In this document: positions 9,513-20,972 of the stretch, one piece after another
Position numbering within the stretch: position 1 is the first letter of the stretch
Layout of the letters: each line of letters starts with the position of its first letter
Virus genome (UHGV): UHGV-0186015
Origin: a virus
Direction: 5' to 3' (one strand)
DNA: 28,702 nt
Translations under genes and position numbers: made by a program
Notes under the pieces: model-generated
The model's input: the letters and a program-made list of their open reading frames with translations, nothing else
The model's database searches: none
Told to the model about the DNA's origin: nothing

Positions 9513-10508
9513 GTGAACGTGAGAGCACTACTGACCCCTGAAATTGCCCCGCGTATGGGGATCGTATTGTTCAGACCAGGTTCAGAGCTGATGCCCCTGT
9601 TTATGCAGGGGCGTGTCCTGCTGGAGCCTGAGCCGGAACGTTATTCATCTTTCGCCAGTGGTGCCGTTCCGGCGGCATCACAACCGCTGGCGGATGATCC
9701 TGCCGTTCGGGCCGTGTTCCGCAATGAGGCAGTGATCCGTCGTGCTGGTGGCGTGGAATGTCTTGAAAGCTGGTTACTTCGTGAAAAAGGCTGCCAGTGG
9801 CCTCATTCCGACTGGCACAGCGAGAACATGACCACAATGCGACACGCGCCGGGCGCAATCCGTCTGTGCTGGCACTGCGATAACCAGCTGCGCGATCAGT
9901 TCACGGAACGGCTGGAATCAATGGCAACGGATAACTGTGCCCGCTGGGTGTTGTCTGTTGTGCGTCGGGATCTCGGTTTTGATGACAGTCACGTTGTGAC
10001 AATGCCGGAACTGTGCTGGTGGCTGGTTCGTAATGATCTGGCGGATGCCTTACCGGAAAGCGCAGCCCGTAAGGCACTGAGATTACCGAAGCCTGTTGTG
10101 CCATCTGTCACCCGGGAAAGTGACCTTGTGCCTTCGGTTCCTGCCACCAGCATCATCCAGGATAAAGCGAAAAAGGTGCTGGCGCTGAAAGTGGATCCGG
10201 AGTCGCCGGAGTCTTTTATGTTACGCCCCAAACGTCGCCGCTGGGTTAACGAAAAGTACACGCGCTGGGTTAAGACACAGCCGTGTGCATGTTGTGGAAA
10301 GTCTGCTGATGATCCCCACCACCTGATAGGCCACGGTCAGGGGGGAATGGGTACAAAAGCGCATGACCTCTTTGTGTTGCCTTTGTGCAGAAAGCATCAC
10401 GACGAGCTGCATGCGGATACCGTGGCATTTGAAGAGAAGTATGGCTCCCAGTTGGAGCTGATATTTCGTTTTATCGATCGTGCGCTGGCAATAGGCGTAC
10501 TGGCGTAA
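9513..10508 (+). CDS. DUF968-family protein (YdfU-like) with C-terminal Cys/His HNH-like motif
   Basis: 331 aa; C-terminal PCACCGKSADDPHHLIGHGQGGMGTKAHDLFVLPLCRKHHDELH. Start uncertain: GTG at 9513, or GTG at 9519 with GAGG 6 nt upstream. Confidence 0.65.
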   Translation: MNVRALLTPEIAPRMGIVLFRPGSELMPLFMQGRVLLEPEPERYSSFASGAVPAASQPLADDPAVRAVFRNEAVIRRAGGVECLESWLLREKGCQWPHSDWHSENMTTMRHAPGAIRLCWHCDNQLRDQFTERLESMATDNCARWVLSVVRRDLGFDDSHVVTMPELCWWLVRNDLADALPESAARKALRLPKPVVPSVTRESDLVPSVPATSIIQDKAKKVLALKVDPESPESFMLRPKRRRWVNEKYTRWVKTQPCACCGKSADDPHHLIGHGQGGMGTKAHDLFVLPLCRKHHDELHADTVAFEEKYGSQLELIFRFIDRALAIGVLA

Positions 10509-10521
10509 GTGGAGAACGAGC

Positions 10522-11274
10522 ATGAACCTTGAAGCCTTACCAAAATATTACTCCCCAAAATCTCCCAAATTGAGCGATGAGGCACCGGCGACAGGCTCGG
10601 GTGGTTTAACGATTACGGATGTGATGGCTGCGCAGGGGATGGTGCAGTCGAAAGCACCGCTTGGGTTTGCCTTATTCCTGGCAAAAGTTGGTGTTCAGGA
10701 TCCTCAGTTTGCGATTGAAGGTCTGCTCAATTACGCGATGGCACTGGATAACCCGACATTGAACAAATTGAGTGAAGAAACCCGGTTACAGATCATCCCT
10801 TACCTTGTGAATTTTGCCTTTGCTGATTATTCCAGGTCTGCGGCAAGTAAGGCTCGCTGTGAGCATTGTGCTGGTACTGGATTTCATAATGTATTGCGCG
10901 AAGTGGTGAAACACTCCAGAAGCGGGGAGTCTGTTATCAAGGAAGAGTGGGTGAAGGAATTATGTCAGCATTGCCATGGTAAGGGAGAAGTCAGCACGGC
11001 TTGCAGAGGGTGTAAGGGTAAAGGCATTGTCCTGGATGAAAAAAGAACCCGGCTTCATGGCGCGCCTGTTTATAAGATTTGTGGGCGTTGCAATGGAAAT
11101 CGGTTTAGTCGTTTACCGACCACACTGGCACGACGTCATGTCCAGAAGCTGTTACCAGACCTGACTGATTATCAGTGGTACAAAGGATATGCAGACGTCA
11201 TTGATAAACTGGTAACAAAGTGCTGGCAGGAAGAAGCATTCGCAGAGTTACAGTTGCAAAAAGTGACACGATAG
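10522..11274 (+). CDS. Q: Late-gene antiterminator Q (zinc-finger Q family)
   Basis: 250 aa with CxxC ... CxxC ... CxxC zinc-ribbon motifs; sits immediately upstream of the late promoter/terminator and lysis cassette. Confidence 0.8.
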   Translation: MNLEALPKYYSPKSPKLSDEAPATGSGGLTITDVMAAQGMVQSKAPLGFALFLAKVGVQDPQFAIEGLLNYAMALDNPTLNKLSEETRLQIIPYLVNFAFADYSRSAASKARCEHCAGTGFHNVLREVVKHSRSGESVIKEEWVKELCQHCHGKGEVSTACRGCKGKGIVLDEKRTRLHGAPVYKICGRCNGNRFSRLPTTLARRHVQKLLPDLTDYQWYKGYADVIDKLVTKCWQEEAFAELQLQKVTR

Positions 11275-11371
11275 CTACATTTTTAATGATTTTCTCCGCA
11301 CAATGCTTGCAATTTTCAAAAAATATGGTTAGCCTTAACATAAAGATGGGCATTGAATGTCTAACTTTTAT
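11275..11371 (+). promoter_or_regulatory. Probable late promoter pR' / qut region (assigned by position)
   Basis: Intergenic between Q and the first downstream terminator; candidate TTGCAA (11306-11311) with a weak -10 (TAGCCT) 17 nt downstream. Exact elements not resolved. Confidence 0.3.
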
Positions 11372-11396
11372 AAACCCGCTCAGGCGGGTTTTATGT
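11372..11396 (+). terminator. Rho-independent terminator (tR'-like)
   Basis: AAACCCGC-TCAG-GCGGGTTT stem followed by a T-rich tract. Confidence 0.6.
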
Positions 11397-11421
11397 TGCA
11401 TGTTTTTTGAACAGCTGATAT

Positions 11422-11437
11422 TGTGATCTTCATCACA
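11422..11437. promoter_or_regulatory. Perfect CRP-consensus palindrome TGTGA-N6-TCACA upstream of the cargo ORF
   Basis: TGTGA (11422-11426), 6-nt spacer, TCACA (11433-11437); candidate extended -10 TGtGATACT at 11440-11448 just downstream. Confidence 0.5.
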
Positions 11438-11466
11438 TTTGTGATACTGGTTGAAAGGAGATCACC

Positions 11467-11670
11467 ATGCAAAATAGTAAACACACGACCAAGAAGGTCG
11501 TGGCAATTGCAAATAATATTGAGATTGGCTCAGTATTAGTGTCTGCTACTCAGAAAAGTATTCTGCTGAATACTGGTTGGGAATTACCAATTAGAGAAGT
11601 AGACAAGCTGTCTCATTCCTATGAGGTTTACATTAAACCTCGTCATAAAACCCTCCATCCTTCGCGATGA
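11467..11670 (+). CDS. Small cargo (moron) protein of unknown function, 67 aa
   Basis: AAAGGAG 6 nt before the ATG; insulated by intrinsic terminators on both sides; at the Q-holin junction, the slot that holds stx in Stx phages. No family recognised. Confidence 0.6.
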   Translation: MQNSKHTTKKVVAIANNIEIGSVLVSATQKSILLNTGWELPIREVDKLSHSYEVYIKPRHKTLHPSR

Positions 11671-11687
11671 TGAAAATAAGATTTTTG

Positions 11688-11713
11688 AGGCCGCCTACGG
11701 GCGGCCTTTTTTA
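11688..11713 (+). terminator. Strong Rho-independent terminator
   Basis: AGGCCGCC-TACG-GGCGGCCT stem followed by TTTTTT. Confidence 0.7.
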
Positions 11714-11799
11714 TGCGCACTTCTGCAAATCAGCGTTATAACCAGCTTCTTTCCCTTTTACTTGTGGCACTTCCGGTAATCGGAGGTGGGAATTATGAA

Positions 11800-12135
11800 A
11801 TGCACAACGATCCTCATTCCTGGCCTGATTTACTTGAACTGTTACAGAGCTGGTGGCGTGGAGACACACCGCTGGGCGCAGTGATTATGTCGATCGTTAT
11901 GGCTGGCTTGCGCATTGCCTATTTTGGCGGTGGTGGTGGCTGGAAGCGAAAAACGCTCGAGATTTTGCTCTGTGGTGCTCTGACGCTGACTTTTGCATCC
12001 GCTCTTGAGTATGTCGGATGGCCCAAATCGCTTTCTGTTGCCATTGGTGGCGGCGTTGGGCTGATCGGTGTCGATGCTATTCGTGGGGCTGCAATGCGAG
12101 TAATCGGTAACAAATTTGGTAGCTCGAAGGAGTAA
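11800..12135 (+). CDS. S: Class I holin (lambda S-like)
   Basis: 111 aa from the ATG at 11800 (GGAGG upstream); three predicted TM segments and a charged C-terminus alignable to lambda S. The upstream in-frame ATG at 11713 has no SD and sits in the terminator T-run. Confidence 0.75.
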   Translation: MHNDPHSWPDLLELLQSWWRGDTPLGAVIMSIVMAGLRIAYFGGGGGWKRKTLEILLCGALTLTFASALEYVGWPKSLSVAIGGGVGLIGVDAIRGAAMRVIGNKFGSSKE

Positions 12136-12138
12136 TTT

Positions 12139-12615
12139 ATGCAGGTACTAAATCCCCAGCGTAAAGCTTTCCTTGATATGGTGGCCTGGTCAGAAGGAAC
12201 GGATAACGGGCGACAACCGACACGTAACCACGGTTATGACGTTATTGTCGGTGGCGAACTCTTCACTGATTACTCCGATCACCCTCGAAAACTTGTCACG
12301 CTAAACCCGAAACTCAAATCAACAGCCGCAGGCCGTTATCAACTTCTTTCACGCTGGTGGGATGCTTACCGCAAGCAGTTAGGGCTGACAGACTTCTCTC
12401 CTAAAAGCCAGGATGCTGTTGCATTGCAGCAGATTAAGGAGCGTGGCGCTTTACTAATGATTGATCGCGGTGACATCCGTCAGGCAATCGACCGTTGCAG
12501 CAATATCTGGGCCTCATTGCCTGGCGCTGGTTATGGTCAGTTCGAGCATAAGGTTGACAGCCTGATTGCAAAATTCAAAGAAGCGGGCGGAACGGTCAGA
12601 GAGAGTGAGGTATGA
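12139..12615 (+). CDS. R: Endolysin, lambda R-type lytic transglycosylase
   Basis: 158 aa; QRKAFLDMVAWSEGTDNGRQPTRNHGYDVIVGGELFTDYSDHPRK ... corresponds closely to lambda gpR at the same length. Confidence 0.95.
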   Translation: MQVLNPQRKAFLDMVAWSEGTDNGRQPTRNHGYDVIVGGELFTDYSDHPRKLVTLNPKLKSTAAGRYQLLSRWWDAYRKQLGLTDFSPKSQDAVALQQIKERGALLMIDRGDIRQAIDRCSNIWASLPGAGYGQFEHKVDSLIAKFKEAGGTVRESEV

Positions 12616-19672: not shown

Positions 19673-20972
19673 TCTCCCGCATATTGCCAGCATGGCCTTT
19701 AATGAGCCGCTGATGCTTGAACCCGCCTATTCGCGGGTTTTCTTTTGTGCGCTTGCAGGCCAGCTTGGGATCAGCCGCCTGACGGATGCGGTGTCCGGCG
19801 ACAGCCTGACTGCCGGAGAGGCACCCGCGACGCTGGCGTTAGCCGGTGATGGTGACGGACCACGACAGGCCCGCAGTTATCAGGTCATGAACGGCATCGC
19901 CGTGCTGCCGGTGTCCGGTACGCTGGTCAGCCGGACGCGGGCGCTGCAGCCTTATTCGGGGATGACCGGTTACAACGGCATTATCGCCCGTCTGCAACAG
20001 GCTGCCAGTGACCCGATGGTGGACGGCATTCTGCTCGATATGGACACGCCCGGCGGAATGGTGGCAGGGGCATTTGACTGCGCTGACATCATCGCCCGTG
20101 TGCGTGACATAAAACCTGTATGGGCGCTGGCCAACGACATGAACTGCAGTGCAGGTCAGCTGCTTGCCAGCGCCGCCTCCCGGCGTCTGGTCACGCAGAC
20201 CGCCCGGACAGGCTCCATCGGCGTCATGATGGCTCACAGTAATTACGGTGCTGCGCTGGAGAAACAGGGCGTGGAAATCACGCTGATTTACAGCGGCAGC
20301 CATAAGGTGGATGGCAACCCCTACAGCCATCTTCCGGATGACGTCCGGGAGACACTGCAGTCCCGGATGGACGCAACCCGCCAGATGTTTGCGCAGAAGG
20401 TGTCGGCATATACCGGCCTGTCCGTGCAGGCTGTGCTGGATACAGAGGCTGCAGTGTACAGCGGTCAGGAGGCCATTGATGCCGGACTGGCTGATGAACT
20501 TGTTAACAGCACCGATGCGATCACCGTCATGCGTGATGCACTGGATGCACGTAAATCCCGTCTCTCAGGAGGGCGAATGACCAAAGAGACTCAATCAACA
20601 ACTGTTTCAGCCACTGCTTCGCAGGCTGACGTTACTGACGTGGTGCCAGCGACGGAGGGCGAAAACGCCAGCGCGGCGCAACCGGACGTGAACGCGCAGA
20701 TCACCGCAGCGGTTGCGGCAGAAAACAGCCGCATTATGGGGATCCTCAACTGTGAGGAGGCTCACGGACGCGAAGAACAGGCGCGCGTTCTGGCAGAAAC
20801 CCCCGGAATGACCGTGGACACGGCCCGCCGCATTCTGGCTGCAGCACCACAGAGTGCACAGGCGCGCAGTGACACTGCGCTGGATCGTCTGATGCAGGGG
20901 GCACCGGCACCGCTGGCTGCAGGTAACCCGGCATCTGATGCCGTTAACGATTTGCTGAACACACCAGTGTAA
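19653..20972 (+). CDS. C: Head maturation protease / minor capsid protein C (GTG start)
   Basis: GTG at 19653 preceded by AGGAGGAGAAGA gives MTAVLRNLPHIA... and 439 aa, the lambda gpC length; the track ORF from 19539 is an upstream in-frame extension overlapping B. Confidence 0.9.
20367..20972 (+). CDS. nu3: Scaffolding protein Nu3, nested in-frame in the 3' part of C
   Basis: In-frame internal ATG at 20367 (MDATRQMFAQKV...) at the position where lambda nu3 initiates inside C. Confidence 0.6.
   Translation: MDATRQMFAQKVSAYTGLSVQAVLDTEAAVYSGQEAIDAGLADELVNSTDAITVMRDALDARKSRLSGGRMTKETQSTTVSATASQADVTDVVPATEGENASAAQPDVNAQITAAVAAENSRIMGILNCEEAHGREEQARVLAETPGMTVDTARRILAAAPQSAQARSDTALDRLMQGAPAPLAAGNPASDAVNDLLNTPV

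Follow-up and report, generated by a model that had tools for sequence, protein, structure and literature searches.

ORF67 is a small gene of an Escherichia coli lambdoid prophage, present in the 28,702-nucleotide UHGV virus genome UHGV-0186015 (the whole of this stretch is referred to below as the window). We found that the gene, which encodes a protein of 67 amino acid (aa) residues, belongs to a cassette (about 11393-11686) that lies between two intrinsic terminators, T1 and T2, at the junction of the late antiterminator gene Q and the lysis genes. We think it reasonably probable that the cassette is a minimal 'moron', transcribed from its own promoter (P_B) and flanked by the tandem terminators of a lambda-type late leader. 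Sequence and comparison establish the order of the elements: Q comes first, then the late promoter pR' and the pause element belonging to it, then T1; the cassette follows, made up of P_B, a 5' hairpin, a Shine-Dalgarno (SD) sequence, and ORF67; T2 and the holin and endolysin genes come last. The elements on which the argument depends are as follows.

11307-11351, plus strand: predicted late promoter pR' (-35 TTGCAA at 11307-11312, 17-nucleotide (nt) spacer, -10 TAGCCT at 11330-11335, predicted +1 A11342)
11372-11397, plus strand: T1, putative first late-leader terminator (tR' equivalent), stem 11372-11379/11384-11391 followed by UUUUAUGUU
11396-11432, plus strand: putative cassette promoter P_B (-35 TTGCAT at 11396-11401, 17-nt spacer, -10 TATTGT at 11419-11424, predicted +1 A11432)
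11422-11437, no strand: CRP-consensus palindrome TGTGA-TCTTCA-TCACA (TGTGATCTTCATCACA), centre 11429.5, about -2.5 relative to the predicted P_B start
11432-11445, plus strand: predicted 5'-terminal mRNA stem-loop AUCAC-AUUU-GUGAU, starting at the predicted +1 of P_B
11454-11460, plus strand: SD sequence AAAGGAG, 6 nt upstream of the ATG; its GGAG is kept in all family loci
11467-11670, plus strand: ORF67, ATG start, 67-aa basic, beta-rich, soluble protein of the orphan family phrog_25981
11687-11713, plus strand: T2, strong intrinsic terminator and putative second late-leader terminator, GAGGCCGCC-TACG-GGCGGCCTT followed by a T-run

The evidence for a promoter within the cassette comes from the 110 nt upstream of the open reading frame (ORF), which we compared in 11 loci of the ORF67 family; these represent nine lineages, and their spacers are unalignable. 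The pattern TTGNNN-N17-TANNNT-N7-purine has exactly one match in each locus (11/11), and MAFFT puts the matches in register. A stricter form that includes TGTGA, TTGNNN-N17-TANTGTGA, was found solely upstream of family members in the 1.39 Mb of fetched phage DNA. The hairpin starts exactly at the predicted +1 purine in 10 of the 11 loci and 2 nt later in the eleventh. Across the 11 sequences, 93.9% of the cells of the helix are paired, as against at most 54.5% in slid controls. Compensatory changes occur in three of the six pairs (the first pair is A-U, G-C, or G-U, and the fourth A-U or G-C), and the covariation score was reached by none of 500 shuffles. The invariant TTG-17-TA...T register and the hairpin that starts at the predicted +1 thus suggest autonomous initiation at P_B, and the strongest indication available that transcription starts at about A11432 is that the hairpin keeps a fixed distance from the -10 element. 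The E. coli substitutions in the regulatory region (five in total) leave the core motifs untouched: they lie in the spacer, immediately 3' of the hairpin, or among the N6 bases of the palindrome; this pattern favours constraint on the core motifs of P_B, but only weakly.

A second pairing was noted in the same region. The sequence GUGAUCUUC (11423-11431) is complementary to GGAGAUCAC (11457-11465), which overlaps the SD sequence, and the resulting helix could form only in transcripts begun upstream of P_B, that is, in late read-through. Sequestration of the SD sequence was considered as a regulatory device and dropped, as the pairing is specific to the window and is not conserved in the other loci.

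The 67-aa ORF and its AAAGGAG ribosome-binding site had been pointed out in an earlier sequence-only reading of the window, and both are present at 11467-11670 and 11454-11460, respectively. ORF67 corresponds to the hypothetical protein WP_001181554.1 in RefSeq. As that reading had proposed, the family is not a recognised one: ORF67 had no match in Pfam, NCBIfam, or PADLOC, and its sole family match was phrog_25981 (E=3.8e-51, positions 1-67 of 67), the function of which is given as unknown in PHROGs. When ORF67 and its region were compared with 50,697 phage records by megablast and tblastn, no match was obtained; the family is thus in PHROGs and not among the deposited phage genomes. A word-indexed search of 5.8 billion protein clusters gave two relatives, with 78% identity, from Citrobacter amalonaticus, and an exhaustive phmmer scan of 1.8 billion representatives gave five further relatives with 36-53% identity. 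By profile search, the family amounts to 11 clusters besides the query, and all 12 aligned members match the phrog_25981 hidden Markov model. The family is thus a very rare, orphan one. The exact ORF67 sequence is present on at least 1000 contigs. In the protein database, ORF67 has been assigned to a '90% identity' cluster with 753 members, of which the representative (P0013) and most of the named members are the neighbouring lambda-family holin. This merging is an artefact of the clustering; searches based on representatives miss the protein as a result, and the cluster of ORF67 itself was not listed in ours. One candidate for a distant member, at locus L021, was rejected as a chance peptide-pattern match between ribonucleotide reductase genes. 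Searches of the complete E. coli genomes for family subtypes of the kinds seen at loci L011 and L008 gave no match.

The alignment revealed the conserved motifs TGW-x-(I/L)-P, SH-x-YEV, and PRHK-xx-HPS, and a C-terminal W or M. Among distant pairs, the proportion of synonymous differences (pS) is 0.70-0.89, which is near saturation, while that of nonsynonymous differences (pN) is 0.31-0.42; changes at third positions are in excess, and dN/dS is 0.25-0.7 wherever it is computable. Since there are homologues of 36-78% identity with conserved motifs, and since pN is well below the near-saturated pS, the comparison identifies ORF67 as a genuine gene under purifying selection.

The cassette is surrounded by what appears to be a late leader of the lambda type. 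The -35 element TTGCAA of pR' begins 33 bases past the Q stop codon, and six bases separate TAGCCT from AAAGATGGGC (11342-11351, +1 to +10), an initial transcribed sequence that matches the sigma-70-dependent pause element of lambda. Lambda pR' reads TTGACT-17-TAAATT-tgactc-AACGATGGGT, with the same register as AAAGATGGGC in the window, and SfV, Ayreon, and the Citrobacter relatives have AACGATGGGC in that register. Because AAAGATGGGC and AACGATGGGC are in register with AACGATGGGT, we take 11307-11351 as pR' with a lambda-type sigma-70-dependent pause element, an assignment made from the sequences themselves. In lambda, the role of this -10-like element is the sigma-70-dependent pause. All three components of a lambda-type late leader are found here: a homologue of lambda Q, then a promoter carrying at +1 an element of the -10-like AACGAT+GGG kind, then an intrinsic terminator.

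T1 starts about 30 nt 3' of the pR' start and folds with a free energy (dG) of -12.7 (z -3.0). Its U-tract (UUUUAUGUU) is interrupted, and for this reason T1 is the weaker terminator and was overlooked by a simple terminator scan. In SfV and Ayreon, the annotation gives the homologous hairpin as a terminator. The predicted pR'-T1 leader RNA (11342-11395, about 52 nt) contains two hairpins (dG -19.4, z -3.1); it would be the counterpart of the lambda 6S RNA and of the precursor of the small RNA (sRNA) StxS, and sRNA activity is possible. T2 has a 9-bp stem (11687-11708) with 7 GC pairs, followed by a T-run (dG -19.7 kcal/mol, z -4.4). The sequence-only reading had seen the ORF as bracketed by two intrinsic terminators, which agrees with the folding of T1 and T2.

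That reading had also regarded the ORF as terminator-insulated cargo. The insulation stands; the terminators, however, would not be part of the cargo. A terminator of the T2 type (AGGCTGCC-N4-5-GGYGGCCTTTT, that is, AGGCYGCC-N4-5-GGYGGCCTTTT) is present 3' of every family member, and also on at least 120 IMG/VR contigs without a gene of the family. Among 81 T2-type sites read in IMG/VR, none had a family member upstream and about 31 were in the Q-to-lysis interval; a wide variety of cargos lay upstream of these sites, and in several cases only 35-38 nt separated the site from the first lysis-gene match. Loci L097, L073, and L039 have no cargo between a T1-like hairpin and a T2-type terminator, which are about 10 nt apart. 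The DNA identity of the Q-pR' region to SfV, mEp460, Ayreon, and Stx2c phages (about 80%) ends where T1 starts, and the similarity to the Citrobacter phages spans Q through T2 and stops right after the T-run of T2. As the T2 type is widespread without the ORF, and as empty T1-T2 pairs exist, T1 and T2 are best read as the phage's own tandem late-leader terminators and not as cargo-borne ones; T2 as a part of the cargo was ruled out by the same terminator type being widespread upstream of ORF-less lysis cassettes.

The moron reading implies the following course of events. In a lysogen, pR' would be constitutive, with transcription stopping at T1, and the sigma-70 promoter P_B would initiate at about A11432. 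The resulting mRNA would be about 280 nt long and its first bases would form a protective stem-loop; T2 would end it, so that the holin and endolysin genes would stay silent. Upon induction, Q-modified polymerase from pR' would pass T1, the cassette, and T2, and ORF67 would be the first and most abundant late product. ORF67 would thus probably be transcribed both autonomously and from the antiterminated late promoter.

The alternative that survives best is that the late operon simply begins with ORF67, which is transcribed solely by Q-antiterminated polymerase from pR', with the upstream motifs serving as an RNA processing or translation signal. The ORF is always 3' of Q and pR' and 5' of the lysis genes, P_B is a weak match to the consensus, and the strong SD sequence would serve a read-through transcript as well. 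Without initiation at this point, however, it is hard to account for the invariant TTG-17-TA...T register and for a hairpin that, in 10 of 11 loci, begins at the predicted +1, and the strong terminator directly 3' of the ORF in every member is what a lysogen-active promoter upstream of a holin would need. We therefore regard an exclusively late gene as rather unlikely.

Another alternative takes P_B for the displaced late promoter of a different Q type, with TGTGAT and the hairpin as a Q-utilisation or pause signal and the likeness to a CRP site as a coincidence. Phages with a small Q of about 120 aa (PF06530; L014 at 4858, L024 at 2889, L055 at 8417, and L077 at 8673) share what may be a late promoter, TTAACGCG...TAnTGTG(A/T)TAAGAG, with a T1-like hairpin 3' of it, and TAGTGTGATaagagtcGTCAC of L014 resembles TAATGTGATattaGTCAC of P_B. 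These small-Q pR' assignments are themselves tentative, though, and the Q of the window is of the lambda type and has its own cognate pR'. Moreover, such a P_B would still act as a constitutive promoter whose transcripts end at T2, and the outcome for the expression of ORF67 would be unchanged. This origin of the promoter seems quite unlikely to us.

The remaining question about the control of the cassette concerns the palindrome. The sequence-only reading had reported a perfect TGTGA-N6-TCACA at 11422-11437, and this is correct: all 10 core positions match, and TGTGATCTTCATCACA is the sole exact match in the window, where 0.03 is expected from shuffles (3 of 100 shuffles had any match). It agrees at 18 of 22 positions with AAATGTGATCTAGATCACATTT, which we take to be the consensus of an ideal CRP site. 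At least 9 of the 10 core positions are retained with N6 spacing in 10 of the 11 loci, the exception being L022. The left half-site is TGTGA in seven of the nine lineages and GGTGA in one, and is lost in L022 (TATTAT-TAAGTAG-ATCACAC), in which the promoter and the hairpin are retained. The palindrome extends from the -10 hexamer of P_B to position +6. The left half overlaps that hexamer (TAT-TGT-GA), and the right half, TCACA (11433-11437), is in the 5' arm of the hairpin. In L002 and L008, the right half is TCGCA (A to G) with a covarying base in the downstream arm, and the left half stays TGTGA. The right half thus appears to be primarily the 5' arm of a covarying mRNA hairpin. Since the right half is a hairpin arm and the left half is -10-like, conservation of the palindrome by itself is no evidence for CRP. 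The palindrome was also considered as an RNA helix and rejected, with 94.5% of its cells pairable and zero compensatory changes. Some constraint beyond a minimal -10 element thus acts on TGTGA(T), and CRP is a reasonable candidate for it; the motif may instead be inherited promoter sequence, since the putative small-Q late promoters also have TAnTGTG(A/T)TAAG. A further CRP-like sequence, TGTGAGGAGGCTCACG, is present at 20751-20766 with one mismatch; the two matches to the CRP core at one mismatch or fewer in the window, as compared with 0.98 expected, are consistent with chance.

From the match of 18 of 22 positions to the ideal site and from the known specificity of CRP, binding in vitro is likely. 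The sequence-only reading went further and proposed autonomous transcription in the lysogen under cAMP-CRP control, with CRP at 11422-11437 activating a promoter that uses a candidate extended -10 element (TGtGATACT, 11440-11448). An autonomous promoter is what the comparative evidence now favours; activation by CRP does not fit it. The palindrome is exact, unique, and rarely expected by chance, and its N6 spacing is widely retained, but its centre is at about -2.5 of the predicted start, 24.5 bp from the SD sequence and 37.5 bp from the ATG, and so not near the positions of class II (-41.5) or class I (-61.5/-71.5) sites. Class II activation would require a start at about 11471, which is already within the ORF, and class I activation one further in. 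The extended -10 element lies inside the 3' arm of the hairpin, is not conserved (TGCGGCGTT in L002, TGTGACTTT in L014), and would place the start in the SD sequence, and L022 has the promoter and the hairpin without the left half-site. Activation is accordingly very improbable as a mechanism and, for the start predicted here, geometrically excluded. With the palindrome centred at about -2.5 and class I/II starts inside the ORF, CRP could only occlude and so repress P_B, or be irrelevant. Repression by CRP at core promoters has precedents, for example, at cyaA. If cAMP-CRP binds the palindrome, P_B would be repressed at high cAMP and be on mainly at low cAMP (e.g. with glucose). That CRP truly regulates the cassette in this way is a possibility to be taken seriously, although we would sooner expect that it does not.

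Several points weigh against the moron reading as a whole. P_B has just 7 of 12 consensus positions in the window and was not called by a consensus promoter scan, and it could be a relic or factor-dependent, its -10 region resembling the putative small-Q late promoters. With the U-tract of T1 interrupted, leak-through from pR' alone might express ORF67. The structure model of the protein is just moderately confident, and there was no fold or family match that gives ORF67 a function. In addition, the E. coli lineage is without the C-terminal Trp/Met, and its protein may be impaired. The end of ORF67 (11665-11679) reads CGA TGA TGA AAA TAA, as against CGA TGG TGG AAG TAA (R-W-W-K) in the Citrobacter homologues; the double TGA was present in all six E. 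coli variants examined, and W or M is C-terminal in every other family member. As a speculation, read-through of UGA by tRNA-Trp would restore the ancestral C-terminal residues. That the ORF is decaying in the E. coli lineage and has no current role is, the change from TGG TGG to TGA TGA notwithstanding, extremely improbable, as WP_001181554.1 is identical in E. coli variants that differ by 1.6-1.9% of the bases in the cassette, the substitutions within the ORF in the GN25 and KK19-02 variants are synonymous, and there are no frameshifts and no changes in the core regulatory motifs.

The position of the gene is conserved and its neighbours are not. In every locus long enough to judge, the family gene is between a Q antiterminator and lysis genes, which bears out the suggestion in the sequence-only reading that the ORF is at the Q-lysis junction where lambdoid phages carry cargo. 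The Q proteins belong to PF03589 (the window and Citrobacter), PF06323 (L008), DUF1133/PF06530 (L011), or PF06530 (L014 and L024). The holins 3' of the family genes are holin_3_1, holin_8 with holin_3_7, or an unnamed 106-aa protein, and the endolysins are lysozyme, GH19, or GH108. Flanking cargo includes an N6/N4 methyltransferase on the 3' side in Citrobacter and opposite-strand genes on the 5' side in L011, L014, and L023. Since the gene travels with at least three unrelated Q types, three holin types, and three endolysin types, we infer that a host or general component is a likelier partner of ORF67 than any phage protein encoded next to it.

The same site is empty of the gene in SfV, Ayreon, and Stx2c phages, despite the common Q-pR'-T1 module, and in the tandem T1-T2 pairs described above. 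The insertion point after T1 is a cargo hot spot. In the phage Ayreon (L026, 1721-2438), a lipoprotein-like ORF (MTVMKKVLIAAIGFCLVGC...) is located there between annotated terminators, and Ayreon and SfV (L027, 1875-3223) have an unrelated 64-67-aa gene of the orf47 type and a DNA methyltransferase. The Citrobacter relatives have ORF70, followed by the same methyltransferase as in the SfV/Ayreon cargo.

The sequence-only reading had noted a basic N-terminus; ORF67 as a whole has an isoelectric point (pI) of 9.9, and its grand average of hydropathy (GRAVY) is -0.42. All members of the family are basic (pI 8.9-10.2) and hydrophilic, and their ORFs are 61-70 aa in length. An AlphaFold2 model made from the 12-sequence alignment is beta-rich with five strands; the predicted local distance difference test (pLDDT) score is 69.6 overall and 82-86 for residues 11-40. 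Sequence and fold comparisons gave no match to a known late-gene or lysis-accessory family, and no sequence or fold match to known lysis-accessory, toxin, or defence families. Consequently, nothing points to the toxin or defence-related function that had been suggested for it. Literature searches with the accession WP_001181554.1 and the PHROG id found nothing. Our guess is that ORF67 is a small binding protein and not an enzyme.

The other features of the region are the neighbouring genes.

10522-11274, plus strand: late antiterminator Q (250 aa), a homologue of lambda Q into which a DnaJ-like CXXC zinc module is inserted (Pfam PF03589 Antiterm, 2.7e-53; PDB 7ubm, lambda Q, E=1.6e-38)
11800-12135, plus strand: lambda-family holin, first lysis gene (Pfam PF05106, 1.1e-27; annotated by PGAP)
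12139-12615, plus strand: GH24 endolysin, 3' of the holin (annotated by PGAP)

The gene order in RefSeq is a DUF968 protein, an antitermination protein, WP_001181554.1 (hypothetical), a lambda-family holin, a GH24 endolysin, and a lysis protein. The 526 bases around the cassette are 100% identical to the FDAARGOS_497, ST648, and ECONIH1 chromosomes and are present in 33 of 5426 complete E. coli genomes; the 321-base cassette alone is present in 32 of the 5426. Close relatives of the holin (P0013) start with MKMHND, like the S107/S105 dual start of lambda. In the window, ATG 11795 and the annotated start, ATG 11800, are out of frame by one base (ATGAAATGCAC), and because of this the holin seems to be without an antiholin start. 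Rfam and tRNA scans of 11200-11900 and 10500-12500 gave nothing above the gathering score and no tRNA.

The moron, a concept of Hendrix and Juhala, is an extra gene with its own promoter and terminator between conserved phage genes, as in HK97 and lambda. ORF67 resembles a moron in that phages that are otherwise homologous lack the gene at this site, and in that it has a putative promoter 5' and a terminator 3'; as to a promoter of its own, the pattern is present in 11/11 loci and the +1 hairpin in 10/11, with a consensus match of 7/12. It differs from the classic morons in that both flanking terminators appear to be resident in the late leader and not imported. In the 5' untranslated region of ompA in E. 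coli, a 5'-terminal stem-loop stabilises the mRNA. The cassette is similar: in each of the 11 loci, a short hairpin supported by covariation starts no more than 2 nt from the predicted 5' end; both the 5' end and a stabilising effect are here predictions. SfV orf47 and Ayreon gp52 resemble ORF67 in being inserted directly 3' of T1 and in having the Q-pR'-T1 module (about 80% identity) upstream, whereas the protein of SfV orf47 is unrelated to ORF67, and the P_B-hairpin motif and T2 are lacking there. Lambda orf-64 was examined as a possible homologue and rejected (hhalign probability 0.3%).

The pR'-tR' leader of lambda (6S RNA) is 194 nt long. The window has the same architecture of pR' and pause element as the leaders of lambda and StxS, and T1 would give a constitutive leader of about 52 nt, which is much shorter than either; ORF67 is 3' of T1 and not inside the leader. 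The StxS leader is 258 nt, and in lysogens of lambda and Stx phages pR' is constitutive and terminated at tR' (PMC7547250). At the same late junction, stx1 has, besides pR', its own promoter, Pstx1, which is repressed by Fur (PMC7547250). Like stx1AB, ORF67 would be cargo at the junction from Q/pR'/tR' to lysis, expressed from antiterminated pR' and from its own sigma-70 promoter overlapped by the operator of a global regulator, which is a candidate here. In contrast to stx1AB, the cargo is a 67-aa orphan protein and not a toxin, the candidate regulator is CRP and not Fur, and the cassette is between two tandem terminators. We therefore consider the cassette a putative moron at a classic lambdoid cargo site, comparable to stx1 with Pstx1 and Fur.

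So far, nothing marks ORF67 as more than one of many uncharacterised accessory genes of prophages, and the design of promoter and 5' hairpin and its placement between tandem late terminators are neat and not surprising. The Q-to-lysis junction, however, carries medically important cargo such as Shiga toxin, and a conserved gene there with its own regulation deserves attention. The cassette of about 320 bp (promoter, 5' stem-loop, SD sequence, ORF of 61-70 aa, and terminator) is found repeatedly in phage backbones that are not related, and extraintestinal E. coli lineages, ST648 among them, carry it. It also illustrates a design rule, namely, that a promoter active in the lysogen has to be backed by a strong terminator if a holin gene lies downstream. 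As ORF67 is an orphan without a fold match, its function would be new information. In an ambitious and unlikely version, ORF67 would be a new kind of host-directed small basic protein, catabolite-gated in the lysogen through a CRP operator on its own core promoter (on at low cAMP and off at high cAMP) and made in bulk as the first late product; the carbon status of the host would then be coupled to something that the prophage controls, for example lysis timing, induction, or exclusion. Should P_B and the CRP operator be real, the cassette would be the second example, after stx1 and Fur, of a global regulator that controls late-region cargo independently of induction.

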